Notes: a model not told the origin generated them from the sequence alone. A stretch of 64,000 nt of DNA from Candidatus Multivoradales bacterium (GCA_965248925.1 CBDFLE010000006.1:1408001-1472000), one strand, 5' to 3'; shown: positions 5,767 to 41,909, counted from the stretch's first letter. Program-made: numbers and translations.

Positions 5767-7617
5767 CTACCAGCCGCAGGTACGGCCTTCGTTCTGCTCG
5801 TCGAGCCAGGTGTGCAGCGGCGCGAAATAGTCGAGGATCGCCGAAGCATCCATCTCCCGACTGCCTGCGAGCGCCTCCAGAGCATCCGGCCACGGTTGGC
5901 TCATGCCCATGGCGAGCATCTCCTGCATCGCCTGACCGGCAGCCTCGTTGCCGTAGATCGAGCAGCGGTGCAAGGGTCCTTCGTAACCCGCCTTCTCGCA
6001 CAGGGCGCGCTGGAATTGGAACTGCAGAATGTGGGCCAAGAAATAGCGGGTGTAGGGCACATTCGCCGGCACATGGTACTTGGCGCCGGGATCGAAGTCG
6101 GCCTCACTACGTTCAACCGGCGCCTCAACCCCCTGGTATTTACGACGCAGCTCCCACCAGCCGGCGTTGTAGTCTTGCTCGCTAATCTCGCCTGAGAAAA
6201 CCTGCCAGCGCCACTGATCGACCAACAGACCGAACGGCAGGAAGGCGACCTTGTCGAGCGCCATCTTGAGCAGCAGGCCAAGATCTGCCGAGGGGTCGGG
6301 CTCTGCGTCGAGCAAACCCACGTCGACCAGATACTTGGGGGTGATCGACAGAGCCACCGTGTCACCCACCGCCTCGTGAAAACCGTCGTTAGCACTGTCG
6401 CGGTAGAGGGGATCGAGGTGCGCGTAGGCGCGCTGGTAGAAATTATGCCCGAGCTCGTGGTGGATGGTATTGAAGTCTTCGGCGGTGATCTGAATGCACA
6501 TCTTGATCCGCAGATCCTGCTCGTAGTCGAGATCCCAAGCACTGGCGTGGCAGACCACATCGCGATCTTTGGGCTGGATGAAAAGGGAGCGCTCCCAGAA
6601 AGTCTCGGGCAGCGGCTCGAAGCCCAGCGAGGTGAAGAAGCGCTCGCCGTAGCGCACCATCTCCAACTCGTCGACCCCTTTCTGTGCCAGCAACTCGCTG
6701 AGATCGTAAGCCGGACTCCCCCCCGGCGGTGCCACCAAGTCATAGATATTGGCCCACTGTTGAGCCCACATATTGCCCAGTAGGTGGGCAGGAATCGGCG
6801 CCGTGGGATCGACGACGTCAGAGCCGTAGGTTTCCGCCAGGCGGGCCCGCACATGGCAGTGCAAGGCTTCGTACAGAGGCCGGACCTGCTCCCAAAGCCG
6901 ATCGACCTCGAGGGCGAAATCGTCCGCATCCATGTCGTACTTTGAGCGCCACATAGCACCAAGGTCGGCAAAACCAAGCTCCTGAGCCCCCTTATTGCCC
7001 AGCTCGACATAGCGGTTGAAGGTCTCGCGCATCGGCACCGACACCTGGCGCCAACCCTGCCACAGCTCGAGCAGGCGATCCGCCTCGCGACTCTCGGCCA
7101 AAACCGGAGTCATCGCCGGCAGATCGAGGCAGTCGCCAGCATCGTCACAATACTCGCCGCGGCCGTAGATGCTCTCCATGGCGGCTTTCAGCTGCGGCAA
7201 CTCCTGGGTCTCTGCCGGATTGGCCGGGGCCGGCAACGTGAGATTTAGCTTGACCAACTGCAACCGGCGGCGCAGCTCCGCCGGCAACTCGGCAGCGTCG
7301 AAACGGGTCGCTTGCGCAGCCAGGTCAATGGTCAGGCCGATCGCCGCGGCATTGGCCTCGGCGGTGCGCTGCTCGTTCTCGTCAGTGATGTCGGTGGCGT
7401 GCGCCCAGTCCGCGGTGCCTTCGGTAATCCAGGCATCGAGCAACTGCGTTTCGGCCTGCTGCAAGAATGCGACGGCCTCCTCGGCGGTCGGTACCTTGGC
7501 GGATTCTTCGCCTGAGCCACAAGCGGCGCCCAGCCCGGCCAGCATCGCCAGGGTCAGCACCTGGAGGGTCGAGAGCAATGCCCGGCGGCGATTCAGAGGG
7601 TCGAGAAACATCTTCAA
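5767..7617 (-). CDS. Peptidyl-dipeptidase A (M2 family, ACE-like), probable lipoprotein
   Basis: HHELGH zinc motif, GFHEAVGD, HLLGNMWAQ, CHASAWD, FDPGAKYHV; lipobox-like GAAC. Confidence 0.92.
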   Translation of the reverse strand: MKMFLDPLNRRRALLSTLQVLTLAMLAGLGAACGSGEESAKVPTAEEAVAFLQQAETQLLDAWITEGTADWAHATDITDENEQRTAEANAAAIGLTIDLAAQATRFDAAELPAELRRRLQLVKLNLTLPAPANPAETQELPQLKAAMESIYGRGEYCDDAGDCLDLPAMTPVLAESREADRLLELWQGWRQVSVPMRETFNRYVELGNKGAQELGFADLGAMWRSKYDMDADDFALEVDRLWEQVRPLYEALHCHVRARLAETYGSDVVDPTAPIPAHLLGNMWAQQWANIYDLVAPPGGSPAYDLSELLAQKGVDELEMVRYGERFFTSLGFEPLPETFWERSLFIQPKDRDVVCHASAWDLDYEQDLRIKMCIQITAEDFNTIHHELGHNFYQRAYAHLDPLYRDSANDGFHEAVGDTVALSITPKYLVDVGLLDAEPDPSADLGLLLKMALDKVAFLPFGLLVDQWRWQVFSGEISEQDYNAGWWELRRKYQGVEAPVERSEADFDPGAKYHVPANVPYTRYFLAHILQFQFQRALCEKAGYEGPLHRCSIYGNEAAGQAMQEMLAMGMSQPWPDALEALAGSREMDASAILDYFAPLHTWLDEQNEGRTCGW

Positions 7618-7639
7618 TATCTCCTTGAATTCGGTGTTG

Positions 7640-8839
7640 CTACTCAGCCAAAGCGGCTGCTAGGCCCGCGAGCCCCTCCTCGAGCACTTCTGGCGCCGCG
7701 CCGTAGGCAATTCGCAAGTGATGATCTTCGGCGAAAGCCACGCCCGGCACCAATGCCACCCCAGCCCGCAGCAGAATCCGGTCGGCAAGTTCGAGCGAAC
7801 CGGCAAAACCACGGGTGGCGGACACCTGTGGGAAAACATAAAAGGCTCCCGGCGGCACCGAACAGACTACACCAGGCAAGCGACGGAGGTGATCCAGCAC
7901 CAAGTCTCGACGCCGCTCGAGCTCTGCCCGGCGGCTTTCGATCTCCTTCCCGGCACCCACCAGCGCCGCCAGCGCGCCGTGCATGGCGAAACTGGTCGGA
8001 TGAGTGTTCATATGCCCTTGAATCGCGATCAGCTTGGCAATCAGTGGCGCGGCGCCAAGCACGTAGCCCACCCGCCAGCCGGTCATCGCAAAAGTCTTCG
8101 AGAACGAGCCCACCACCACCACGGTGTTGGGATAGTCGCTGGCGAAAGCAGCGGCGCTCTTCGGCCTACGGTGATCGTAGACGAAGCGCTCATAGGTCTC
8201 GTCAACGATCAATACCACCCCGCGTTCGGCACAGCCGGCTGCCAAGCGGCTGAGTTCCTCATCTTCGCAGACCGCGCCGGTGGGATTGCAGGGCGAGCAG
8301 ATGATCACCGCCCGAGTAGCCTCGGTGATGGCCGCTATTAGCGGCGCCGCGCGCAAGGCGAATCCATCTTCCGCCACCCTCGGCACCGCCACCGGTCGAC
8401 CGCTGGCGAAACGCACTTGAGCCCTGAAGGTAACCCAATCAGGGGCCGCCAAGACCACCTCACTAGCGGTGTCCACCAAGGCTTGAGCAAGCATGAAGAG
8501 CGCCGATTTGGCACCGACGGTGATCAAACAGCTGTCGCCTTGCCACGGTGCCCGCCAAAGCCTGCGGTAGCGTTCGGCCAGAGCTTCGCGCAGCGCTGGC
8601 AATCCGGCACTCTCGGAATAGCGGGTGTAGCCGTCCGCCAAAGCCCGTCGCACCGCTTCTAGCGCACACTCAGGCGACTGAAAGTCCGGTTCGCCGGCGC
8701 CAAGATCCACTACCCGGCGCCCTTTTGCTCGCAGCTGAGCTACGCGCGCCGCCACTTGCATGGTGGCGGAGGCACCTAGTTCTTCGGCCCGCTTGGAAAG
8801 ACGCATGGCTGCGGATGGTATCATTGCTGCTGGCGACAT
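7640..8839 (-). CDS. PLP-dependent aminotransferase class I/II (aspartate aminotransferase-like)
   Basis: GEPDF, SPCNPTG, DETY, SFSKTFAMTGWRVGY with the PLP lysine. Confidence 0.9.
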   Translation of the reverse strand: MSPAAMIPSAAMRLSKRAEELGASATMQVAARVAQLRAKGRRVVDLGAGEPDFQSPECALEAVRRALADGYTRYSESAGLPALREALAERYRRLWRAPWQGDSCLITVGAKSALFMLAQALVDTASEVVLAAPDWVTFRAQVRFASGRPVAVPRVAEDGFALRAAPLIAAITEATRAVIICSPCNPTGAVCEDEELSRLAAGCAERGVVLIVDETYERFVYDHRRPKSAAAFASDYPNTVVVVGSFSKTFAMTGWRVGYVLGAAPLIAKLIAIQGHMNTHPTSFAMHGALAALVGAGKEIESRRAELERRRDLVLDHLRRLPGVVCSVPPGAFYVFPQVSATRGFAGSLELADRILLRAGVALVPGVAFAEDHHLRIAYGAAPEVLEEGLAGLAAALAE

Positions 8840-8971
8840 CGGCCTGGGTGAGGACCCGACGCGGCAACGGCCCGGATCTTGCTTCTATTTGCCACTGCTA
8901 CCGCTGGTCATGCCCACGCTGCTACTGCCTTTGCCGGCAACACCTCAGAGTCACCGAACCGGAGTCATCCC

Positions 8972-9835
8972 ATGCAGAGACTATCGATCACCCTGTCGGC
9001 GCTGATCCTGCTGCTGGCGGCCACCGCCGCCAAAGCTGCCCCCGCCGGCTGGGAAACCGACATTGAACGCGCTTTCGAACTCGCCGCCGAGAGCGATCGC
9101 TTGTTGCTGGTCGACCTATACGCGGATTGGTGTGGCTGGTGCCGAGTGCTCGAACGCAAGGTCTTCGCCACCCCCGAGTTCAAGGCCTTCGCCAAAGATT
9201 TCGTCTTGCTCTATGTCGATGTCGAAGACGGCGCGGCAGGCACCGAGCTGCAATCCCGTTACGGTGGCAATTCCCTACCCACGGTGCTGATCCTGACTCC
9301 GAAACGCGCCCAAGCTGGCGTCGTCAATGGTTTTCAGCCGACCTCTGAGTTGATCGCCACGGTACGCCGCCAACTGCAACTCTACGATAGGTTCTTGACC
9401 CACTACGAGAGCAATCGCAGCAGCGATGATCTAGGCACCTTGCAGCGCCTGGCCGAGACCCTGCACGGGCAGAGCGACGGACGCCGCGCCGTGGTGGTCT
9501 ACCGGCGGGTCGGCGAGTTGGTGCAAGCGGGCTCGAAAGCCGATGCTTGGGTCCACTACATGCTGGCCGACGCCCACCGCCTGGACCGCTCATGGCAGCA
9601 GGCCACTACCGCCATTGGCCGGGCCCATCAGCTAGCGAGCAAGATCGGCCACAAAGACTTGAGCGAGCGGGTCGAGTTGCTGCACTACCAGATCGCTCGC
9701 GAGGCTGGAGACTGCCTGACCGCCAAGACCACCCTCGAGCGCTTTCTGCTCCAACATCCAGCGAGTAGCCACAGCCGTAGGGCACAGCGAGCACTCAATC
9801 TGATCAAGAGCGGCAACGACTCGCGCTGCACCTGA
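8972..9835 (+). CDS. Exported thioredoxin-family protein with C-terminal TPR-like helices
   Basis: Signal peptide from MQRLS; DLYADWCGWC active site; helical repeat C-terminus. Confidence 0.8.
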   Translation: MQRLSITLSALILLLAATAAKAAPAGWETDIERAFELAAESDRLLLVDLYADWCGWCRVLERKVFATPEFKAFAKDFVLLYVDVEDGAAGTELQSRYGGNSLPTVLILTPKRAQAGVVNGFQPTSELIATVRRQLQLYDRFLTHYESNRSSDDLGTLQRLAETLHGQSDGRRAVVVYRRVGELVQAGSKADAWVHYMLADAHRLDRSWQQATTAIGRAHQLASKIGHKDLSERVELLHYQIAREAGDCLTAKTTLERFLLQHPASSHSRRAQRALNLIKSGNDSRCT

Positions 9836-9891
9836 GACCGCCCAGTTAGCTCTCCAGCACTCCGTCGATACCGACCGCACGAGGCAAAGGA

Positions 9892-11739
9892 ATGAAACCA
9901 GGCTCGCTCCTCAGACGCCGTCCGACCGCGCTATTCCTCATCCTGCTGACCTGGCCTTGCTGGGCCGGGCTATCCGTTGCCAGCGCCCAGGGGTTCCCGA
10001 TTCAGCACAAGGCGGGCCTCGATTTGCAAGCCAACCGCACGGCCTACCTGGCTGGCGAGACAGCGCGCGTCGCGGCGGTGGTGGAGATCGAAGACGGCTG
10101 GCATATCAACAGCTGGCAACCCCTCGACGATTTGGTAGTCGCCACCGAGCTTGACGCCATCGTGCCGGCCGACTGCCAGCCTGCGCAAATCAGCTATCCC
10201 GATCCGCACCAAAAGAAGTTTCCCTACACCGACGGCCCGATCCCGGTCTACGACGGGCGGACGATCTTCTTCGCTGATCTCGAGATACCTGCCGGCACAG
10301 GTTTGGGCAGCGTCACCGTGGACTTCAGTCTGCGCTACCAAAGCTGCGACGACAGCCAATGCCTGCCACCAGCAACCCGCGAGGCGAGCATCGAACTGAT
10401 GATCGGCAGCGGCGGCCAAGCCAACCAGCCAGAGCTCTTCGGCGAAGCCGGCACCGCCACCAGCGGCCCGTCTCTGGAGATCCCCGCGGCGGCACCCGCG
10501 GCAGCGCCAAACCTGCTGTGGATCCTGCTCCTCGGGGTGATCGGCGGCCTGATCTTGAACGCCATGCCCTGCGTGTTGCCGGTGCTGTCACTGAAAGTGT
10601 TCGGCTTGGTCAAGAGCGCCAGCCAAGGCCGCTCCCACCTGGTCGCCGGAGCCTTGGCTTCGAGCGCGGGTATCTTGGTCTCTTTCTGGGCCTTGGCGGG
10701 CGCGGCGGCATTGCTGCAAGCCGGCGGCAAGACGGTGGGCTGGGGCATCCAGTTTCAGCAGCCAGGCTTCGTCACTTTCCTGGCGGTAGTGGTGGTGCTC
10801 TTCTCGCTCAACATGTGGGGCCTGTTCGAGATTCAGCTGCCGGGCAGATTGGCGCAAGTGGGTGGCCAACCGCGCGAAGGCTTGGCCGGCCACTTCGCCT
10901 CGGGTCTATTCGCCACTCTGATGGCTACCCCTTGCTCAGCACCCTTCCTCGGCACCGCGGTGGGTTTTGCCCTCAACCAACCCGTGGGGGTGATTTTCGC
11001 CGTCTTCACCGCCGTCGGTATCGGCTTGGCCTTGCCCTATTTGCTGCTCGCCGCGGTGCCTGGCATCGCCAATTTGCTGCCCAAGCCGGGAGCGTGGATG
11101 AACACCTTACGCGGGGTGATGGGATTCCTGCTCGCAGCCGCGGCGGTGTGGTTGTTCTATATTCTCGCCGGCCAAGTGTCGAGCGAACGCCTGGCCTTCA
11201 TCCAGCTAGCTTTGCTCGCTGTCGCTCTTTGCGTCTGGCTGCAACGCCAGGCCGGTAGCAGCGGCGGGCGGCGCCTGGCCAGTGTTGCAGTAGCGGTAGC
11301 GGCGGTGCTCACCGTCGTGCTGGCTGCCGGCGCCACGGCCGACAGCAGAAGCTCGGCCACCCAGGCTTCGAAACTGATCCCCTGGACGGCATTCGACCAA
11401 GCCCAAGCCATCGACTTGGCGGCGGGCGGTCAGCTGGTGTTCGTCGACGTCACCGCCGATTGGTGCCTGACTTGCAAATTCAACGAACGCACCGTGCTCG
11501 AGACCCGCGAGGTCGCCGCAGCCTTCGACCGCCTCGGCGTGGTGCCGATGAAAGCCGACTGGACCAACCGCAGTCAGCAGATCGCTGACTACCTGGCCCA
11601 ATACGGACGGTCATCGATTCCCTTCTATGCCCTCTATCGGCCAGGCAAGGAGCCCCACGTCTTCAGTGAGCTGCTGACCAAGAGCAGAGTGCTCGGAGCC
11701 CTCGACCAAGCCTCCGCGATGGCCTCGGTCGCACCCTAG
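9892..11739 (+). CDS. dsbD: DsbD-family thiol:disulfide interchange protein
   Basis: N-terminal domain YQSCDDSQCLPP; membrane domain LNAMPCVLP and ATPCSAPFL; C-terminal thioredoxin domain VTADWCLTCK. Confidence 0.9.
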   Translation: MKPGSLLRRRPTALFLILLTWPCWAGLSVASAQGFPIQHKAGLDLQANRTAYLAGETARVAAVVEIEDGWHINSWQPLDDLVVATELDAIVPADCQPAQISYPDPHQKKFPYTDGPIPVYDGRTIFFADLEIPAGTGLGSVTVDFSLRYQSCDDSQCLPPATREASIELMIGSGGQANQPELFGEAGTATSGPSLEIPAAAPAAAPNLLWILLLGVIGGLILNAMPCVLPVLSLKVFGLVKSASQGRSHLVAGALASSAGILVSFWALAGAAALLQAGGKTVGWGIQFQQPGFVTFLAVVVVLFSLNMWGLFEIQLPGRLAQVGGQPREGLAGHFASGLFATLMATPCSAPFLGTAVGFALNQPVGVIFAVFTAVGIGLALPYLLLAAVPGIANLLPKPGAWMNTLRGVMGFLLAAAAVWLFYILAGQVSSERLAFIQLALLAVALCVWLQRQAGSSGGRRLASVAVAVAAVLTVVLAAGATADSRSSATQASKLIPWTAFDQAQAIDLAAGGQLVFVDVTADWCLTCKFNERTVLETREVAAAFDRLGVVPMKADWTNRSQQIADYLAQYGRSSIPFYALYRPGKEPHVFSELLTKSRVLGALDQASAMASVAP

Positions 11740-11813
11740 AGATCGTACGCGAAACGAGCTTCGACTAGCACCGGCGAGAGATCTTCAACCACCTGATCCG
11801 AAGGGAGTCCAAG

Positions 11814-12470
11814 ATGGGTTTCTGGAGTACCAAAGACACCAGCTTACCGAGTGCCACGGACGCCTTGCCTGGACGAGCCAGCAAGATGCCGGTCCCAGAG
11901 CGCCATTTCGTGCTCGATTCTCCCTTGGCACCGCCCTACCCGTCGGGCTGTGAGCTGGCGATGTTCGGCCTCGGTTGCTTCTGGGGTGCCGAGCGTAAGT
12001 TCTGGGAGGCTGAAGGAGTGTTGACCACCGCCGTTGGCTACGCCGCCGGCCTGACTCCCAATCCCACCTACCAAGAAGTGTGCGCTGGCAGCACCGGCCA
12101 CAACGAGGTAGTCCGAGTGGTTTTCGATCCCACACTGATCAACTTCGAACAGCTATTACAGATCTTCTGGGAAAGCCACGATCCCACCCAGGGAATGCGC
12201 CAAGGCAACGACGCCGGCACCCAATACCGCTCGGGAGTCTACACTTACGGCGACTCCCAGAAAGCCAGCGCGGAGGCATCGCAAAAGGCTTACCAGGGGC
12301 ACCTGAGCGCCGCCGACCATGGCGAGATCACCACCGAGATCCTGGCCGCCCCCGAATTCTACTTTGCTGAGGAGTACCACCAGCAATATCTGGCCAAGAA
12401 CCCCAGCGGCTATTGCGGCCTCGGCGGCACCGGCGTCAGCTGCCCGGTGGGGGTGGGCCTCAGCACTTGA
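11814..12470 (+). CDS. msrA: Peptide methionine sulfoxide reductase A
   Basis: GCFWG active site, [21 protein letters not shown]. Confidence 0.95.
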
Positions 12471-34094: not shown

Positions 34095-35273
34095 TCAGCC
34101 CAAGCGTTCGATTTCGAAGCTTGAGTCTTCCTGCAGCACACCGTCCTCGCCACCATCGAGCTCCATGCCCTCTTCCATCTCCTCGCGAGCCACGTCCGAG
34201 GTGAACTGTACTCCGGCCACCTTGAGTTTGAACTCATCCGGGTTGGTGGCGCGGCGCAAAGCCTCGTCGAGGGTGATCAGACCACCCTTGAAGAGGTAGT
34301 ACAACGATTGATCGAAGGTTTGCATGCCGTATTGGCTGGTGCCCAAGGCGATCTGCTCACGGATGTACTTGGTCTTCTCTTTGTTCTCGATGCAATCGCG
34401 GATGTAGGGAGTGGTAACCATCACTTCGCAAGCCGGTACCCGCCCCATGTCATCAGCCCGCGGCACCAAGCGCAGCGAGACGATCGCCTTCAGCACTTGG
34501 CCGAGCTGGATGCGGATCTGCTTCTGATGGTGCGGTGGAAAGACCGAAATGATGCGATTGATGGTCTCAGCGGCATCCAAGGTGTGCAAAGTCGAGAACA
34601 CCAGATGGCCGGTCTCGGCCGCCAACAAAGCGGTCTCGATGGTCTCGTAGTCGCGCATCTCGCCGACTAGCACCACATCCGGATCCTGACGCATGGCGGC
34701 GCGCAGAGCCTGAGCGAAAGTGCGGGTGTCGACATCGATCTCGCGCTGATTGACCAGTGATTTCTTGTCCCGGTGGAGGAACTCGATTGGGTCCTCGATG
34801 GTCATGATGTGCTCGCCGCGGGTCGAGTTCACATAGTCGATCATCGCCGCCAGGGTGGTCGACTTTCCCGAGCCGGTGGTGCCGGTACAAAGCACCAAGC
34901 CGCGACGCTCCTCGGACACCTTCTCCAACACCTGCGGCAGCATCAGCTCGCGAATGGTCTTGATCCGCGCCGGAATGACCCGCAGAACCATGCCCACCGT
35001 GCTGCGCTGCTGAAAGACGTTGCAACGAAAGCGCCCCAGCCCCGGCACCGAATAGGCGATATCGATATCGAGCTCTTCCTTGAAACGCTGCTTCTGCCGC
35101 GCGTTCATGATCGAGTAGGCCATCGACAGGGTGTCTTCCTGCATCATCCGCTTGAGTTCGGACATCGGCTGTAGCTCGCCATCGACACGGATCACTGGAT
35201 GACTACCAACTTTCAGATGCAGATCCGAAGCCTTGCGCTCGACTGCGAGCTTGAGGAGGTCGTTGATGTTCAT
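34095..35273 (-). CDS. pilT: Type IV pilus retraction ATPase (PilT/PilU family)
   Basis: ASDLHL, GTTGSGKSTT, TIEDPIE, RQDPDVVLVGEMRD, AETGHLVFSTLHT, GMQTFDQ; the AIRNLIRE position reads YIRDCIEN. Confidence 0.9.
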   Translation of the reverse strand: MNINDLLKLAVERKASDLHLKVGSHPVIRVDGELQPMSELKRMMQEDTLSMAYSIMNARQKQRFKEELDIDIAYSVPGLGRFRCNVFQQRSTVGMVLRVIPARIKTIRELMLPQVLEKVSEERRGLVLCTGTTGSGKSTTLAAMIDYVNSTRGEHIMTIEDPIEFLHRDKKSLVNQREIDVDTRTFAQALRAAMRQDPDVVLVGEMRDYETIETALLAAETGHLVFSTLHTLDAAETINRIISVFPPHHQKQIRIQLGQVLKAIVSLRLVPRADDMGRVPACEVMVTTPYIRDCIENKEKTKYIREQIALGTSQYGMQTFDQSLYYLFKGGLITLDEALRRATNPDEFKLKVAGVQFTSDVAREEMEEGMELDGGEDGVLQEDSSFEIERLG

Positions 35274-35436
35274 CGAAACATCCCTTGGGGGGTGGTTGCG
35301 GAGTGGAAAACAGCGAAATCGCCGCAGCTAGGCTAGCACAGAGGCCGGAGTGCAGAATCTCACTCTGTCAGCATGCTCTGAGGACCGACCACGGTGCTAA
35401 ACATCACCACAAGGCCAGCGGCGAAGACGACAGCAT

Positions 35437-38400
35437 CTACGCCTTGGCGTCTTTCAGACTGAGGACGAACTCGGCCTTCGGCTTCGTGCCGTCTGACCGC
35501 CGGGCAGCCTCCGGACACTCTGGGGCGGCTTGCCTTTTGAAACCACCGCCAGCCCATAAAGCGCTGGTGACGGTACCAAGGTTATAAGCCCGAATCCGGA
35601 GTTCGTGGATCTCCGTCGAATGTCTGAGAAGTCCTGCCAACCGGCTCTCGCTGAACTCTTTGATCAACCTCTCGACAAAGAGTTCGCCGACCCCCACACC
35701 CCATAGACCAGCCCCGACATAGAGCCGATCCGAGTCAACCCACCCAACTTTGGCTTCAATACGGACTTCGACGACGCCAGCGAGGATCCGCTGGGCATCT
35801 GGCCCGAGAGGAAGGGTCAGACCCAGCAGATAACCGTCGTTGGACGACCACTCGCGCCGCCTGGCACGCCACCGCTCGAGGGTGTAGCCGACACCATCAG
35901 GATCGCGGATACGCTGCAATTTCGCTGCTGTTACCTCGAAGCGTAGAGGGAGTTGGAACTCTGCGTGCATAAAGAGTTTGAACGAGCGCGGATAGAGTGG
36001 CGACAACCATGGCCACCAGGCGCGAAACAACTGGCTGGTCGCCCAGCGTCCGAGGCGGTTGAACCAGCCCTTGTAGCGCGGATGGCTGGCCGCCACCGAA
36101 CTGTCGTTCATGCCGCTGCGCACGCAGAGAGTGTGCATCAGGCGCAGCGCGCATTGGATGATCGGCAGCGCCTCGAACAGGACCAGGTCCAGACTAGCGG
36201 GTGGCGAGCAGCGGGGTGGAGTGCAGCCCAACACCTGACGGTAGAGTTCCCTTGGCCCTTTCGCCACCAGCTGAGCTTCCATCGTCTCCCATTCCCGCTC
36301 GAGGTCTGTCAAGGTCGGGGCATCATCGCCGCGAGTCGGCGGCCAGGCCAGCCGCGCCTCGAGAAAGACCCGGATCAAATGCCGCCGGTCGTGGACCTTG
36401 GGTTTGCCCTTCGGCTGCAGGCCGGCCAGCGCCTTGCCGGTAATGTGCTGACCGAGTTGCCGATAAGCCTCCCACTGGGCCTCGTCGTAGAACTGGTCGA
36501 GGGTGGTCTCATGGGGAAAGGCCTCGTTGCGGATGGCGTACTGACTGATGTCGCTAGGCTCTTCGCCGACCAGAGTGGGCTTTAGATAAAGCAAGATTCC
36601 CTGATCTCCCCGCGGGTACTCGATGGTACCGGCGACCATCGGTTGGCGGGCCGACCCAACAGCGGAACGCAGCGGCTCGAGGTCGATATCGATCTCGACC
36701 CCGAAGTCCTCACGCACTCGTCGCACCACATTGCCGAAATCGTCGAAGGCGACGTCTGGATCAGCGCCGCAATCCGACAGCAGGATATAGCGGCAGTGAC
36801 GCCGAATCAGCTCATACAATGCCAAGTTCTCGAAGTGGGCGCCATCGGAGAGGTGGACCCAGCCTGAGCGGGCAGTGCTCCATCCAAACAGCTCGCGCAG
36901 GAACAGCAGGCCCGGAAATTTGCGCTGAATCGAAGTCCAGGCCCGCCCAGCTCCGCTCGGCCCCTCGATCCACAGACCGAGGCGCAGGCCCAGGGCCGCC
37001 AGTAGAAAAGTCGACGGCCGCCCAATCCGCATCGACACACTGCCCATCAGTGAGTTGAAGGCGGCAGCCGAAGCGGTCATGGCGCCAGCCAGAGACGGGG
37101 CTCGCCCACCCTTCTTACCGGTCTCGCTCCAGCGCCGCCAACGGTCTCCGACCTGCAGTCCGTTGCGTGAGATGACGGCGCTCTGAGCACCCCGGTGCAA
37201 GGTCGGCAGCTCATCACTGGCAAGGTCGTTGGCGGTGCAGCAGATCAAGTGCAAAGGGCGCTTCGGCAGCTGGTCGACGCCAAGGTCATCCCCAGGGGCG
37301 ACCTCGGTGGCGAACGGCGGTGCGGTGCGGTTGGAGGCACCCAGATAACTGCGAGTCAGCCGTCCTCGATAGAGAGCGTGAAAACCGGTTTCGTGCGGGT
37401 CGAAAACCACTGCCGCGACCGCCAGCAGCAACGCCGCTACCAGCAGCGGCCACAGCAGATGGCTCCATGCCAGGGACTCGGCCAGCAGTACAAGCAGCGC
37501 AGCGCTGGAGGTTGCACTAGCGAGAATGGTAATCGAGGCGATCAACCGCGGCAGCCAGGGGCGCAACAAAGCCCGCCACCGAGCGCCGCTCGGCTTGTTT
37601 GGCTGGGCCGAAAACAACCGGCGAGCGAAAGCGAAGGTGCCACCGCCACCGAGCGCCGTGGCAACGGCACCGACAATGCCCTCGACACCAACCGCCGCAA
37701 GCCACTGGCCACCCAGCCAGCAACCGCCGACGACCAGCCAGGTCGCCGCACCGAGGAGAGTCAACGACAGCACCCGACCCAGGGCCGCCTGCCGAGCCCG
37801 CGCCGGTTGCGGATCTCTTTCCCCTTGAGCTGCCAGGCGGCTGAGAAAAGTCTGAAAGACCGCCAGAACCAAGGCCGTCACCAACCAAGCCCCGGCTGGT
37901 AGGGCTACCAGGCCACCGGCAGTGAGCGCGGCGTCTGGCGGCAGCGAGCGGAGCAGCATCCAACTCGGCAACGGCACCAGATGCCACAAGAACCACCAAG
38001 CAGTCACCGTCAAGACTACGGCGAACAGGCTCCAGGCCAGGTAGGCGCCGTTGGCCCGGCTCGCCTCTGCTTCCGGCCGCCGCCACCACAACGCTTCACC
38101 GACCAGCACGAGCGTTGCAGAGATCCCCAGCATCCACCCCGCGTTGGCCAGCCCTGGTGGTCCCCAACCGGCACCGCTCAAGTACTGCGACAGCACCGCC
38201 CACGCCGCCAACACGAAAACCAACACCGCCAGCGCGATCACCACCGATGGCACCACCGCACCAAAAGCGCCCGCGACGATGCGGCCGGTCGAGAAGGTAA
38301 ACAGAGACATCCGCGGTCGCAAGAAGTTGGCAAACTCCCGAAGATGACGAATCTCCTCTGCCTCAGGCTCTCCGCTCGGGAACATGGGTGCGGGTTCTTC

Positions 38401-38877
38401 GTCCTCTTTCTTCTCTCCGTCCTCGTTTCTCCTTCCCGGCCCTATCTCTCTTTCTTCCTCTCGTTTTCTCCGCTTCAGCCAAGCGCTCCAGAAGCCGCCT
38501 ACGTAACCGCCACCGGAGACTGTCGACACGTAGTCGACGCCCGACAGGATCTTCAACTTGTCAAGCTCCTGCAGCACACCGAGATTGAAAGTGGCGCTGC
38601 GGATGCCGCCGCCGGAAAGTGCCAAGCCGACCCGCTCCGGCGCCGTAACCTCCTCCCGCCAGCGGGGGAAACGCTGACTGCTTGGACAGGTCAGCTGTGG
38701 CGATTCCTGGTCAGTCCTCTCGATGTCGGCATCTTCGAGTTGCTGCAGGCTCGCCCAGCAGTTGCAACTGTCGAACAAGCTCTCCTCCGTCAAGCCCGAC
38801 GACTCGCTAGCTTCCACCTCTGGCGGCGCCTCCACTTCTACGGTGGTGGCGTTCATTACCTGTTCGTTGTTGCTCAC
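35437..38877 (-). CDS. Polytopic membrane patatin/cPLA2-type lipase with a putative C-terminal GNAT-like domain
   Basis: GLALSGGGIRS oxyanion motif, STVSGG nucleophile Ser, about 8-10 hydrophobic helices, LSDGAHFENL catalytic Asp; C-terminal LYVGAGLWGVGVGELF resembles the GNAT acyl-CoA-binding motif. Confidence 0.8.
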   Translation of the reverse strand: MSNNEQVMNATTVEVEAPPEVEASESSGLTEESLFDSCNCWASLQQLEDADIERTDQESPQLTCPSSQRFPRWREEVTAPERVGLALSGGGIRSATFNLGVLQELDKLKILSGVDYVSTVSGGGYVGGFWSAWLKRRKREEEREIGPGRRNEDGEKKEDEEPAPMFPSGEPEAEEIRHLREFANFLRPRMSLFTFSTGRIVAGAFGAVVPSVVIALAVLVFVLAAWAVLSQYLSGAGWGPPGLANAGWMLGISATLVLVGEALWWRRPEAEASRANGAYLAWSLFAVVLTVTAWWFLWHLVPLPSWMLLRSLPPDAALTAGGLVALPAGAWLVTALVLAVFQTFLSRLAAQGERDPQPARARQAALGRVLSLTLLGAATWLVVGGCWLGGQWLAAVGVEGIVGAVATALGGGGTFAFARRLFSAQPNKPSGARWRALLRPWLPRLIASITILASATSSAALLVLLAESLAWSHLLWPLLVAALLLAVAAVVFDPHETGFHALYRGRLTRSYLGASNRTAPPFATEVAPGDDLGVDQLPKRPLHLICCTANDLASDELPTLHRGAQSAVISRNGLQVGDRWRRWSETGKKGGRAPSLAGAMTASAAAFNSLMGSVSMRIGRPSTFLLAALGLRLGLWIEGPSGAGRAWTSIQRKFPGLLFLRELFGWSTARSGWVHLSDGAHFENLALYELIRRHCRYILLSDCGADPDVAFDDFGNVVRRVREDFGVEIDIDLEPLRSAVGSARQPMVAGTIEYPRGDQGILLYLKPTLVGEEPSDISQYAIRNEAFPHETTLDQFYDEAQWEAYRQLGQHITGKALAGLQPKGKPKVHDRRHLIRVFLEARLAWPPTRGDDAPTLTDLEREWETMEAQLVAKGPRELYRQVLGCTPPRCSPPASLDLVLFEALPIIQCALRLMHTLCVRSGMNDSSVAASHPRYKGWFNRLGRWATSQLFRAWWPWLSPLYPRSFKLFMHAEFQLPLRFEVTAAKLQRIRDPDGVGYTLERWRARRREWSSNDGYLLGLTLPLGPDAQRILAGVVEVRIEAKVGWVDSDRLYVGAGLWGVGVGELFVERLIKEFSESRLAGLLRHSTEIHELRIRAYNLGTVTSALWAGGGFKRQAAPECPEAARRSDGTKPKAEFVLSLKDAKA

Positions 38878-40106
38878 CCGGCACTCCAGAATCCGCCTGG
38901 CGGCGCCGAGCAGTAGTAGACCGCAGCGCCGAAAGCTTGGCCAACCACTAACCCACTGGCTCCTTCGAGTTCGACGACTACAGAGGCGCCGCTGACCAGA
39001 CCGCCGGGATCGAACGACATGGCGTCGATCTCACCCTGCGGACCGATCTCGAGCCGCCATAAGATGCTCGGCGAAGCAGCCCACGGGGAGATCGCGTGCT
39101 GGGCGAGGCGGCGGAGGTTGGCGCTGCCGGCAGCCAGCAGCACGCTGGCTGTCGGATCAGCCCAGGTCAGATTGTCAAGCCCCGGCAACTCCTTGCCCAA
39201 TGGTCGGCCCTCGAGCAGTCCCTGGCGGTCCCGAACAGCGTCGAGGTCGACCTCGTAGAGCCGGCCCTCGAAGGTGGCAGTGACGTAGAGCTTGCCGAAC
39301 TTGCCCAAGAGACCTGGGCGATGGGCGATACCATTGAGAAAACGCCCGTGTTCGAAGATGACACTGAATGTGCCGTGGCAGATCAGCTCCTCAGATCGAC
39401 AGCGGATCTGCACTATCTTGGAGTTCGAATTCGGCCCATCGCGCTCAAGCCACAGCGCCAGAGCACCGTGCGGCGGCGAGGTGACGTAAACATCGCCGTT
39501 GGCAAGTGCTACCAGGTCATTGCCGTGGGTCAGGACTCGTGGCTCAGCAAACCGCTGGACGAAGCGCAGCCGGTGGCGCTCGACGACAAAGACCTCGACG
39601 CTAGTGAAAGGACGGCGGTAGAAGGCAACTTCGCTGGCCGCGGCCAGACAGTTGGCAGCCGGCGTGGCGTCCTCAGCCCGGTGGTGGTTGACGATGTAGA
39701 GCAGCGGTACCGGCTTGCTGCCTGGCGCGATGAGGCGATCAACCCGCGACAGCCCGTGGGGACGGAACGAGCAAGCGTCACGGCCGGCCAAGGTCAGTCG
39801 TTCGGCCCGCGCCGCGACACCCGGCGACGGTAAGGTAAGCGCGTAGACTGCGCCATCAGCACCGCCACCGCGACGGCGATCATGCGACGAGACCAACAAC
39901 CGATCACCATCCAAGACCAGATCCTCAGGCCCCGGAACGGCGGCGACCGGAATACAGCTCGCATCACCGGCCGGCGACAGCTCGCTCGGCGGACCCGGCG
40001 CTCGGCAGGTGACGAGAAGGGTCGACAACAACAGCACCGGCAATCGAGCGCCAGCTCTGCAATCGGTTCGACGGCGGGACGACGGTTTGGTCTCGTTGGC
40101 TCGCAC
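38874..40106 (-). CDS. Paraoxonase/arylesterase-like six-bladed beta-propeller, probable lipoprotein
   Basis: GPEDL, FRPHGL, IVNH, GNDL, LNGI, LDNL in the same order as the PON Ca2+-ligand and His-dyad motifs; GAGGAG ribosome-binding site; stop overlaps the next start (GTGA). Confidence 0.75.
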   Translation of the reverse strand: MRANETKPSSRRRTDCRAGARLPVLLLSTLLVTCRAPGPPSELSPAGDASCIPVAAVPGPEDLVLDGDRLLVSSHDRRRGGGADGAVYALTLPSPGVAARAERLTLAGRDACSFRPHGLSRVDRLIAPGSKPVPLLYIVNHHRAEDATPAANCLAAASEVAFYRRPFTSVEVFVVERHRLRFVQRFAEPRVLTHGNDLVALANGDVYVTSPPHGALALWLERDGPNSNSKIVQIRCRSEELICHGTFSVIFEHGRFLNGIAHRPGLLGKFGKLYVTATFEGRLYEVDLDAVRDRQGLLEGRPLGKELPGLDNLTWADPTASVLLAAGSANLRRLAQHAISPWAASPSILWRLEIGPQGEIDAMSFDPGGLVSGASVVVELEGASGLVVGQAFGAAVYYCSAPPGGFWSAG

Positions 40107-40353
40107 CTGTCTCCTCAGATCTACTCAAAAGGTCTCAGTCGAATACATTGCGGCTTATTTCCGCAAGCTACTGCCTCACTATCCTGCGCAGAATTTCCCA
40201 TAGCAGCCCCCAGAACGGACCGCTGTACTGAGGCGAGAATACCCACTTGAGCGAGGCGCTCTGCCCACAAGCCTAACCCAGCCGGCTGGCCGGATGCTGA
40301 ATCTCTCACCAATGAGGTGAGTCAGCTTTCATCATGGAACGCTGATCGGCCGC

Positions 40354-41043
40354 TCAGCACAGCAGCTTCGCGGCGGCGGCCAACGCCGCTGTCTCGACGC
40401 GCAAGATGCGCTCACCGAGACCCAGCGCGGCGCAATTCAACTCTTGCCAGCAGCCGCGTTCCGACTCGCTCCATCCGCCTTCCGGGCCGATCGCCACCGC
40501 TACCGAACCCTCCGTTGACCGAGGACTCGCAGCCACCGCGCCAACGTCGAGCAGCCAGCGTTCCTCTGCCGGGGCCAGCAGATCCGCCACCTCGGCCCAG
40601 GCATGCACGCCGCTAATCTGCGGCAACCGAGAGCGGTGACATTGCTCCAAGGCCGCGGCCGCCACCCGCCGGAACCGCTCCAGTTGGCCGTTGCCGTAGC
40701 GCCGCGGAGCGCGCTCGCTGGCGATGAACCGTATCGCCACGACACCGAGTTCGGTGGCCTTCTCGACCAACCATGAAGCGCGTTCGGGACGAGGCGGCGC
40801 CACCAGCAAGGTCAGCTCCAACGCCGCTTCGCGACTCGCTGCCGAGTCTGCCAAAAGCACTTGGGCGCAATGCCGATCGACTTTTTCGACCGTCGCCCAG
40901 CGCGCTTTGCCCCGACCGTCAACGATCCGTAAACGGCTTCCTACGGCCAAGCGACGGGCGCGAAACAAATGGCGGTAGGCATCCCCTTGGATCTCGATCT
41001 GCTCGCCTGCAAAAGCCTGCTGAGCCACCAGATGGGTGATCAC
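40354..41043 (-). CDS. rsmE: 16S rRNA m3U1498 methyltransferase
   Basis: EKATELGV, ALEQCHR, IGPEGGW, LGERILRVETAA. Confidence 0.93.
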   Translation of the reverse strand: MITHLVAQQAFAGEQIEIQGDAYRHLFRARRLAVGSRLRIVDGRGKARWATVEKVDRHCAQVLLADSAASREAALELTLLVAPPRPERASWLVEKATELGVVAIRFIASERAPRRYGNGQLERFRRVAAAALEQCHRSRLPQISGVHAWAEVADLLAPAEERWLLDVGAVAASPRSTEGSVAVAIGPEGGWSESERGCWQELNCAALGLGERILRVETAALAAAAKLLC

Positions 41044-41909
41044 GACTGAACTCCCGCGCTGCGCACCAGAGTCCACGCGACCCACTCCTCAGCGTAACGC
41101 TCGGCAGAGGGCGCCAGGCCAAGGCCGGCGAATTGGGCAAGTAGCTCGCTGCGCCTGGTGGCTAGATTGCCGGAGCTGATCAGCCGGCCTCCGGGCCGCA
41201 GGGCGCGGACAAGTCGCGGCAGGTCGTCGACAATACGCTCGGGCAAGACATTGACCAGCAGCAGGTCGAAGCTCTCCACCACCGCCAGGCAGGCGGCTGT
41301 CCCTGCCACCAAGCGAGGAGCCAGAGCATTGAGTTGGGAGTTGCCACGAGCGGTGATCACCGAGGGCAGATCGAAATCGTAGGCGACCACCGAGCGCGCA
41401 CCGCAGCGCAAGGCTGCGAAGGCCAAAATGCCTGAGCCGCAGCCGACATCGAGCACCTGCTGGCGCCGAAGATCGAGTTCCTCAAGCAGTTCCAAGGCCA
41501 AACGGGTGGACTCGTGGCTGCCGGTGCCGAAGGCGTTCATCGCCGGAATCCGCAGCAACACACGCTCGCCAGCCGTGATCGTCGGATCGTCGTCGGGATC
41601 GCGGGGATCGAGCAACCAGCAGCGACCCACTTCAAAGGGCACCGCCTGGGCTCGGTAATCAGCCAGCCAATCACGATCTTCGAGCGCTCGATCGGCCACT
41701 TGCCGCACTCCACGAGCCGCCCAAGGGTCGAGGTTGATCTGGGACGAAGGCGCTGTGCTGGCAGGTGGGAAATAGGCTTCGACGCGGATCTCCTCGCCCG
41801 CCGAGCAGATCTCGAGGCCGGCTACACCTGCTGCCCACAACTCGACGGTGAAGTCCTCTTCGAGCGCCAGGGGCAGCAAGAAACTCTGCTGACGGTAGGG
41901 AGCGGACAC
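41040..41909 (-). CDS. prmA: Ribosomal protein L11 methyltransferase (start approximate)
   Basis: AFGTGSHESTRL, VLDVGCGSGILA; follows dnaJ. Confidence 0.9.
   Translation of the reverse strand: MSAPYRQQSFLLPLALEEDFTVELWAAGVAGLEICSAGEEIRVEAYFPPASTAPSSQINLDPWAARGVRQVADRALEDRDWLADYRAQAVPFEVGRCWLLDPRDPDDDPTITAGERVLLRIPAMNAFGTGSHESTRLALELLEELDLRRQQVLDVGCGSGILAFAALRCGARSVVAYDFDLPSVITARGNSQLNALAPRLVAGTAACLAVVESFDLLLVNVLPERIVDDLPRLVRALRPGGRLISSGNLATRRSELLAQFAGLGLAPSAERYAEEWVAWTLVRSAGVQS

Follow-up and report, generated by a model that had tools for sequence, protein, structure and literature searches.

A predicted paraoxonase-type propeller and a predicted membrane-split cPLA2-type lipase–GNAT fusion are encoded by translationally coupled genes in a Candidatus Multivoradales bacterium

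We analyzed a 64,000-nucleotide stretch of DNA from a Candidatus Multivoradales bacterium (GCA_965248925.1 CBDFLE010000006.1:1408001-1472000), referred to here as the window. It contains two adjacent genes whose products are predicted to be an exported propeller of the paraoxonase (PON) type (gene 1) and a membrane-embedded lipase of the cytosolic phospholipase A2 (cPLA2) type fused to a GNAT domain (gene 2). The pairing is real, translationally coupled, and confined to one lineage. With a probability of roughly 0.55, the genes form a translationally coupled operon for two lipid-ester enzymes that would work on opposite faces of the inner membrane in envelope lipid remodeling or repair in this Acidobacteriota-like lineage. 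A preliminary description of the same DNA had reported the pair; its coordinates, motifs, and gene junction were correct, and its observation was confirmed in almost every detail.

Searched on its own, the gene 1 protein matched no entry of Pfam, NCBIfam, PADLOC, or PDB. Among 1.84 billion cluster representatives, 214 relatives were found at E ≤ 0.001, 24 of them at E ≤ 1e-30. A family profile was made by aligning 46 relatives (365 positions) and was searched against PDB. The profile matched eight distinct PON1 sequences with E values of 1.3e-46 to 1.1e-43, and its positions 21–355 of 365 aligned with PON1 residues 30–351. The next-best family was DFPase (E 2.2e-13). Among the 46 aligned members, 10 matched the Pfam family Arylesterase (PF01731) and 19 matched SGL, indicating that the close clade is a divergent branch of the PON/SGL propellers. 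By homology over the whole propeller, the gene 1 product is a predicted six-bladed propeller of the PON family, and the profile search thus bore out the PON-like character that had been proposed for it.

The active-site positions were compared in the profile alignment. Gene 1 E61 and D62 aligned to PON1 E53 and D54, H117 to H115, H141 to H134, N196 and D197 to N168 and D169, N258 to N224, D311 and N312 to D269 and N270, and C51 to C42. The PON1 catalytic and structural Ca2+ ligands are E53, N168, N224, D269, and N270; D54 and D169. His115 and His134 of PON1 form a His dyad, and Cys42 and Cys353 a disulfide. All nine PON1 metal and His positions were conserved in the gene 1 family, together with the Cys pair; C51 and C399 were invariant in the 22 closest members. 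The columns of E61, D62, N196, D197, N258, D311, and N312 were invariant or at least 90% conserved. The preliminary description had listed PON1-type motifs in the order ED, PHG, NH, ND, NG, DN, and all were present (NH as NHH) in columns that were invariant or nearly so. Because the two calcium sites are kept along with the His dyad and disulfide, gene 1 most likely encodes an active Ca2+-dependent lactonase/esterase. Further cysteines (C112, C153, C236, and C243) were invariant or nearly so in the 22 closest members, and the conserved cysteine set of the clade fits an oxidizing, extracytoplasmic location.

A hydrophobic N-terminus was found in all 22 close members of the gene 1 family. The cysteine of the window protein lies in LVTC, in which Thr at position −1 departs from the canonical lipobox [LVI][ASTVI][GAS]C. 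A strict lipobox was present in 4 of the 22 members and a loose one in 10, and the others had no such cysteine. The signal, described earlier as lipoprotein-like, is no more than that in the window protein. The gene 1 product is probably exported and lipid-anchored.

For the gene 2 protein, Pfam Patatin matched residues 85–142 only (E 8.3e-7; 29.8 bits versus a cut-off of 27.7) and covered only the first 56 positions of the Pfam model. NCBIfam and PADLOC scans of the protein gave no match, and ESM Atlas results were unnamed or patatin-labeled clusters only. An alignment of 56 full-length relatives was made, and an AlphaFold model was built from the same alignment (predicted local distance difference test, pLDDT, 84.1; predicted template modeling score, pTM, 0.76). 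G89-G-G-x-R93 and T119-V-S121-G-G were invariant in 56/56 sequences, as were S677, D678, H681, and N684 in S677-D678-G-x-H-F-E-N. The first Gly of G-x-S-x-G is replaced by Thr119 throughout the family. The model consisted, in order, of an alpha/beta segment, eight long helices, an alpha/beta segment that ends near residue 830, helices as far as about residue 974, and a beta/alpha domain.

An all-against-representatives structure search was used to rank matches to the gene 2 model. The best was cPLA2-delta (5ixc_A; Z 23.9, root-mean-square deviation (rmsd) 4.3 Å, 362 residues aligned, model residues 36–840), followed by cPLA2-alpha (1cjy_B; Z 22.1, 391 aligned, model residues 32–844). PlpD (5fqu_A, Z 17.6), CapV (8zr9_A, Z 15.7), CapE (9iom_A, Z 15.1), patatin (1oxw_A, Z 15.0), iPLA2-beta (6aun_B, Z 14.6), and VipD (4KYI, Z 12.1) came next. 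Since the cPLA2 alignments span model residues 36–840, the two halves are predicted to form one cPLA2-type fold around the membrane insert. The identity of the lipase to cPLA2 was about 15% in the structural alignment. The structural match to cPLA2 supports the lipase proposed earlier, in which a membrane domain lies between the Ser and Asp halves; the motifs named for this lipase (GGGIRS, STVSGG, and DGAHFEN) were all present, with catalytic columns invariant or nearly so.

The insert had been estimated to hold about 8–10 membrane helices, and the model gave eight long ones (residues 195–491). As this number is even, both lipase halves would be on one side of the membrane. The gene 2 N-terminus is acidic and has no signal peptide, and the loop at 412–444 contains seven Lys plus Arg and no Asp or Glu. 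CoA (coenzyme A) is a cytoplasmic cofactor. Because of the missing signal peptide, the even helix number, the positive-inside loops, and the cytoplasmic location of CoA, the gene 2 N-terminus is most likely inside the cell, with the lipase and GNAT domains in the cytoplasm and the gene 1 propeller in the periplasm. A complex of gene 1 aa 40–410 and the membrane domain of gene 2, taken as aa 185–500, was also predicted. It scored 0.49, 0.49, and 0.55, a control with chain 1 replaced scored 0.49, and the prediction is evidence neither way.

The gene 2 tail was modeled separately from 14 locus-derived sequences (pLDDT 86.6). Foldseek returned 80 matches to this model at E ≤ 0.001, and all were of the GNAT superfamily among the matches listed. 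VIA-align gave 205 chains at Z ≥ 8 over residues 981–1146; AAC(6')-Ib (1v0c_A) was matched with Z 13.3 and rmsd 2.4 Å over 136 aligned residues. Among the matches listed, the structure search covered the GNAT part only, and the helical region 831–980 has no assigned fold. In the loop W1059-G-V-G-V-G1064, conservation was 55/56, 53/56, and 54/56, and Trp stands family-wide in place of the Gln/Arg of motif A. Among 120 gene 2 relatives listed, PF13508/PF00583 was annotated in one, and five were named GNAT by their source. At the level of the predicted fold, the tail is a GNAT, in agreement with the GNAT-like tail described before.

Other features of this region were noted. Pro-Pro is usual at 1055–1056 of the gene 2 family, and the window protein has Gly-Ala there. 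Malonyl-CoA decarboxylases (4ks9_A, 280 columns, E 1.1e-2) were among the further matches that Foldseek listed for the full gene 2 model. In these enzymes, a helical domain is paired with a GNAT-like one, and the arrangement of helical linker and GNAT in gene 2 (about 831–1146) is reminiscent of them.

The start codon of gene 2 overlaps the stop codon of gene 1, indicating translational coupling. This overlap and a ribosome-binding site for each gene (GAGGAG for gene 1 and GGAG for gene 2) had been noted before and were found as described. So were the gaps of 160–250 bp that set the pair apart from housekeeping genes: 163 bases separate gene 2 from pilT (34095–35273) downstream, and 247 bases separate gene 1 from rsmE (40354–41085) upstream. 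On the minus strand, the genes follow each other in the order dnaK, dnaJ, prmA, rsmE, the pair itself, pilT, recX, and alaS. The GC content of the window is even (0.58–0.67) and unbroken at the pair, and both genes are single-copy in the source genome (8 Mb). An Rfam search of 34900–40600 gave no match, and a sigma-70 scan found no promoter-like site. Ten terminator-like sites were found within genes or on the opposite strand, and neither intergenic gap contained one. Four sequencing runs, all from one study, were listed, none of them recorded as RNA. The coordinates of the pair and its parts are given in Table 1.

Table 1. Positions of gene 1, gene 2, and their predicted parts, counted from the first nucleotide of the window.
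Feature	Position	Strand	Description
Gene 1	38874..40106	−	Open reading frame (ORF), 410 aa, stop codon included; predicted exported PON-like six-bladed beta-propeller
Gene 1 export signal (predicted)	40005..40106	−	N-terminal, aa 1–34: Arg-rich n-region, hydrophobic LPVLLLSTLLV, Cys34 in LVTC
Gene 1 propeller body (predicted)	38892..39959	−	aa 50–405; E61, D62, H117, H141, N196, D197, N258, D311, N312, Cys51/Cys399
GAGGAG, Shine-Dalgarno-like	40111..40116	−	Four bases 5' of gene 1 GTG start; read from the sequence
GTGA start/stop overlap	38874..38877	−	Gene 2 GTG (38877–38875) over gene 1 TGA (38876–38874)
GGAG ribosome-binding site for gene 2	38884..38887	−	Within gene 1 3' end, six bases before GTG
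Gene 2	35437..38877	−	ORF, 1146 aa, stop codon included; predicted membrane-embedded cPLA2-type lipase fused to GNAT domain
Lipase N-terminal half (predicted)	38308..38640	−	aa 80–190: oxyanion G89-G-G-x-R93, nucleophile Ser121 in T-V-S-G-G
Inserted membrane domain (predicted)	37405..38295	−	aa 195–491, eight long helices (DSSP on model), hydrophobic segments
Lipase C-terminal half (predicted)	36388..37383	−	aa 499–830; catalytic Asp678 in S-D-G-A-H-F-E-N
Helical linker region (predicted)	35938..36387	−	aa 831–980, helices 831–974 in model
GNAT-fold domain (predicted)	35440..35937	−	aa 981–1146, loop W1059-G-V-G1062-V-G1064; Trp at 1108

The pairing was followed in 60 genomes belonging to the family and order of the source genome. 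Six of them contained a gene 1 relative (G011, G012, G033, G038, G043, and G052), and gene 2 orthologues of nearly full length occurred in G011, G033, G038, G043, G052, and G054. Gene 1 lay directly upstream of gene 2 on the same strand in G011, G033, G043, G052, and G012; in G038 the two genes were on separate contigs, one at the end of its contig and the other at the start. When 400 further phylum genomes were sampled, a gene 1 relative at E ≤ 1e-10 was found only in G038. A metagenome scan with the close-clade gene 1 alignment returned six loci. Five of these had a gene 1 relative with gene 2 directly downstream (four full-length pairs and one of fragments), and the sixth had a weak partial gene 1 relative (35% identity) without gene 2.

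A four-base start/stop overlap was present in seven intact pairs, as GTGA in the window, G011, G033, and L113, as ATGA in L111 and L114, and as TTGA in G043. The L112 pair also overlaps. The genes flanking the pair vary between the genomes that carry it, and no third conserved gene was common to the flanks of the paired loci, except in two closely related metagenome loci. In those two (L111 2728–5825 and L113 2621–5741), proteins of about 740 aa and about 290 aa are encoded just upstream of the pair. Both contain a repeated C-terminal domain that is about 50% identical between them; a weak BNR-like match was obtained for one, and neither was found in other paired loci.

A quick maximum likelihood tree of gene 2 was built from 29 sequences (28 loci and the window; the remaining loci were left out). 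The eight paired gene 2 copies and G054 formed one clade with a Shimodaira–Hasegawa-like approximate likelihood ratio test (SH-aLRT) value of 100, and G054 was nested inside it, which fits a pairing that arose once and lost its gene 1 afterwards in G054. In the G054 locus (L107, G054:C337, 7405–11618), pilT is directly downstream of the gene 2 orthologue as in the window, and an ABC transporter is upstream on the opposite strand. This suggests an old gene 2–pilT neighborhood from which gene 1 was lost in the G054 lineage. The co-occurrence across genomes expected by the preliminary description was thus found in part: the pair recurs with its overlap in relatives, and it is confined to one clade.

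The pair was also seen in decayed form, in L108 (G052:C9, about 6461–10837), L109 (G012:C235, 2383–3893), and L116 (6001–7610). In G052, gene 1 matches fell in three reading frames, and gene 2 was frame-split with two internal TGA stops. In G012 and L116, short adjacent fragments of both genes remain. The two genes seem to decay together; assembly errors are possible.

Gene 2 also belongs to a much wider family. A word-index search, in which 8000 candidates were scored, found at least 2111 relatives at E ≤ 0.001, and the best non-self match had 50% identity. Named relatives came from Thermoanaerobaculia, Longimicrobiales/Gemmatimonadota, and Myxococcota. In 74 loci with distant gene 2 relatives, no adjoining gene 1 relative was found except a weak propeller match in L072, and no neighbor was conserved beyond clusters of close kin. 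In most of the 74, the gene 2 relative ends near residue 820 and has no tail. The membrane-split lipase is thus a large, widespread, and mostly solitary family. The L072 propeller (10993–12126, from a Planctomycetales metagenome-assembled genome) is a distant gene 1 relative with E 3.3e-17 to the family profile. The distant gene 2 relative about 2.5 kb upstream of it has no tail, and this proximity may be due to chance.

The predicted activities and locations can be combined into a working model of envelope lipid remodeling or repair. At the cytoplasmic face, a membrane lipid that the eight-helix bundle holds or passes through would be deacylated or transacylated by the lipase with its Ser121/Asp678 dyad and GGGxR oxyanion hole. 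The lipase product would be re-acylated or N-acylated by the GNAT domain, for which acyl- or acetyl-CoA would be the ligand. The propeller would act at the periplasmic face, hydrolyzing either a damaged lipid or a product that is an ester or lactone.

Several observations weigh against this model. Gene 1 alone falls below all Pfam thresholds and matches no PDB sequence, and its link to PON requires the family profile. The topology of gene 2 rests on sequence rules and the model, in which the periplasmic loops are very short, so that a partner would have little surface on which to dock. The gene 2 protein gave no match to the Pfam GNAT models. Residue 1108 (codon at 35554–35556), a Tyr in 52/56 family sequences and part of the motif L-Y-x-x-A-G-F in relatives, is Trp in the window protein only; the change may weaken transferase activity, and the GNAT domain of the window copy may thus be functionally impaired. 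Finally, G054, whose genome is 79% complete, keeps a gene 2 orthologue without gene 1, indicating that the lipase can work alone.

A special membrane lipid, such as an N-acylated aminolipid or an N-acyl-phospholipid, might instead be synthesized by the pair. The cPLA2-type domain would then be a transacylase and the GNAT domain an N-acyltransferase, and the propeller would trim or mature the product outside. One mammalian cPLA2 paralogue acts as an N-acyltransferase, and the fusion of a cPLA2-type domain to a GNAT is conserved in a large family. GNAT-fused enzymes that act on the head groups of lipids are described in PMC12419801, which also counts for this explanation. However, no lipid-synthesis gene is conserved beside the family, and the 74 loci gave no recurrent neighbor beyond close kin. 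Many members of the gene 2 family lack the tail entirely, and in the window protein the GNAT family Tyr is the Trp described above. We consider this explanation unlikely.

Quorum quenching or other signal processing is a further alternative. The propeller would degrade acyl-homoserine lactones or lipophilic lactone signals, and the lipase–GNAT protein would make, import, or recycle the acyl moiety. By its title, a 2013 study by Bar-Rogovsky et al., cited in PMC9937041, ties PONs to bacterial homoserine lactonases. Every PON1 active-site position is kept in gene 1, and PON-family enzymes hydrolyze lactones, including homoserine lactones (PMC9937041). But no LuxI/LuxR-type gene is conserved beside the pair in the flanks of the paired loci, and the gene 1 family is rare (2 of 401 phylum genomes sampled). 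Coupling to a lipase of more than 1100 aa is also left unexplained. This explanation appears quite doubtful.

Lipid remodeling or repair, the preferred reading, has a bolder form. The pair could be a bacterial trans-membrane lipid-editing machine, in which one protein would run a Lands cycle with a deacylase of the cPLA2 type, eight helices that serve as a lipid conduit, and a re-acylase that depends on CoA. It would be coupled one-to-one with a periplasmic paraoxonase that clears oxidized-lipid esters or lactones. PON1 partners with phospholipase A2 on high-density lipoprotein (HDL), and the machine would be the prokaryotic counterpart of that partnership. In this full form, the proposal is speculative and has a low probability.

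The preliminary description had also raised a role in defense. The lipase would be an anti-phage or abortive-infection effector that destroys the membrane on a trigger, like CapV in the cyclic-oligonucleotide-based antiphage signaling system (CBASS), and the propeller would be a sensor or regulator. CapV (8zr9_A, Z 15.7) and CapE (9iom_A, Z 15.1) have the same lipase fold, and some relatives carry several lipase-core paralogues (9 matches in G052, for example). However, cPLA2 was clearly a better structural match than CapV, and PADLOC gave no family for either protein. Among the 30 flanking ORFs of six paired loci, no cyclase, STAND, or other sensor gene was found, and PADLOC matched only two ORFs, through generic L-PSP and cNMP-binding domains. 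The window operon itself lies between dnaK-dnaJ-prmA-rsmE and pilT-recX-alaS with unchanged composition. The defense reading was not borne out, and no defense island was found in these 30 ORFs. We regard such a role as very unlikely.

That the two genes are chance neighbors without a common function is hardly credible: G054 and the 74 distant loci do have gene 2 relatives without adjoining gene 1, but the overlap is kept in seven intact pairs with differing flanking genes, close gene 1 relatives were never seen away from gene 2, and both genes are disrupted together in G052 and G012/L116.

The pair may be useful for the study of both of its families. The native substrates of paraoxonases are still debated (PMC9937041). 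Here a bacterial enzyme of the PON family is linked to a lipid-ester enzyme through a conserved start/stop overlap, which provides a genetic handle on propeller action on lipids. The gene 2 lipase family is large, with thousands of representatives in soil and freshwater phyla, and our literature searches found no study of it. If the gene 2 reaction were worked out, a new way in which bacteria remodel their membranes might come to light. The searches also found no description of a PON–lipase pairing or of a membrane-split cPLA2–GNAT architecture, in line with the preliminary description, which knew of no described system with this pairing.

The closest known relatives of gene 1 are PON1 (1V04; PF01731) and bacterial PON-like lactonases. 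They are alike in full-length propeller homology and in the calcium, His115/His134, and Cys42-partner positions. Like PON1, the gene 1 product is predicted to be exported and has an N-terminal hydrophobic anchor or signal. It differs in the extra conserved cysteines C112, C153, C236, and C243 and in falling, when searched alone, below all Pfam thresholds, and its family differs in the lipobox-like cysteine of many members. A further difference is the translational coupling to a membrane lipase, which no paper found describes for any PON.

Gene 2 was compared with three groups of enzymes. It is like group IV cPLA2 (cPLA2-alpha, 1CJY; cPLA2-delta, 5IXC) in GGGxR, the Ser/Asp dyad, and D-G-[GA], and this group is its best fold match. 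In contrast to these enzymes, it is bacterial, has eight membrane helices between its Ser and Asp halves, and ends in a predicted GNAT. Group IV enzymes proper are soluble, are recruited by Ca2+, and begin with a C2 domain; the Pfam scan found no C2 domain in gene 2. Because it has eight membrane helices instead of a C2 domain, gene 2 resembles cPLA2 in its catalytic fold and is not a member of group IV cPLA2 proper. Patatin-like lipases (PlpD, 5FQU; CapV, 8ZR9; CapE, 9IOM; VipD, 4KYI) have the same Ser/Asp patatin fold. These lipases, which nucleotides or host factors activate, occur as soluble, secreted, or autotransporter-linked proteins, whereas gene 2 is predicted to be integral to the membrane, has no partner cyclase or secretion signal, and is closer to cPLA2. 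The tail resembles GNATs (AAC(6')-Ib, 1V0C; SpeG; RimI) in its fold, its glycine-rich beta4-alpha3 loop (W-G-x-G-x-G), and its C-terminal (Y)-x-x-x-G-F. It differs from them in having Trp for the motif A Gln/Arg, in Trp1108, and in being joined to a membrane lipase by some 150 aa of helical sequence. Each kind of component, whether PON-like propeller, patatin/cPLA2 lipase, or GNAT, is known; the membrane-split cPLA2–GNAT architecture and its coupling to a PON-like enzyme are new.

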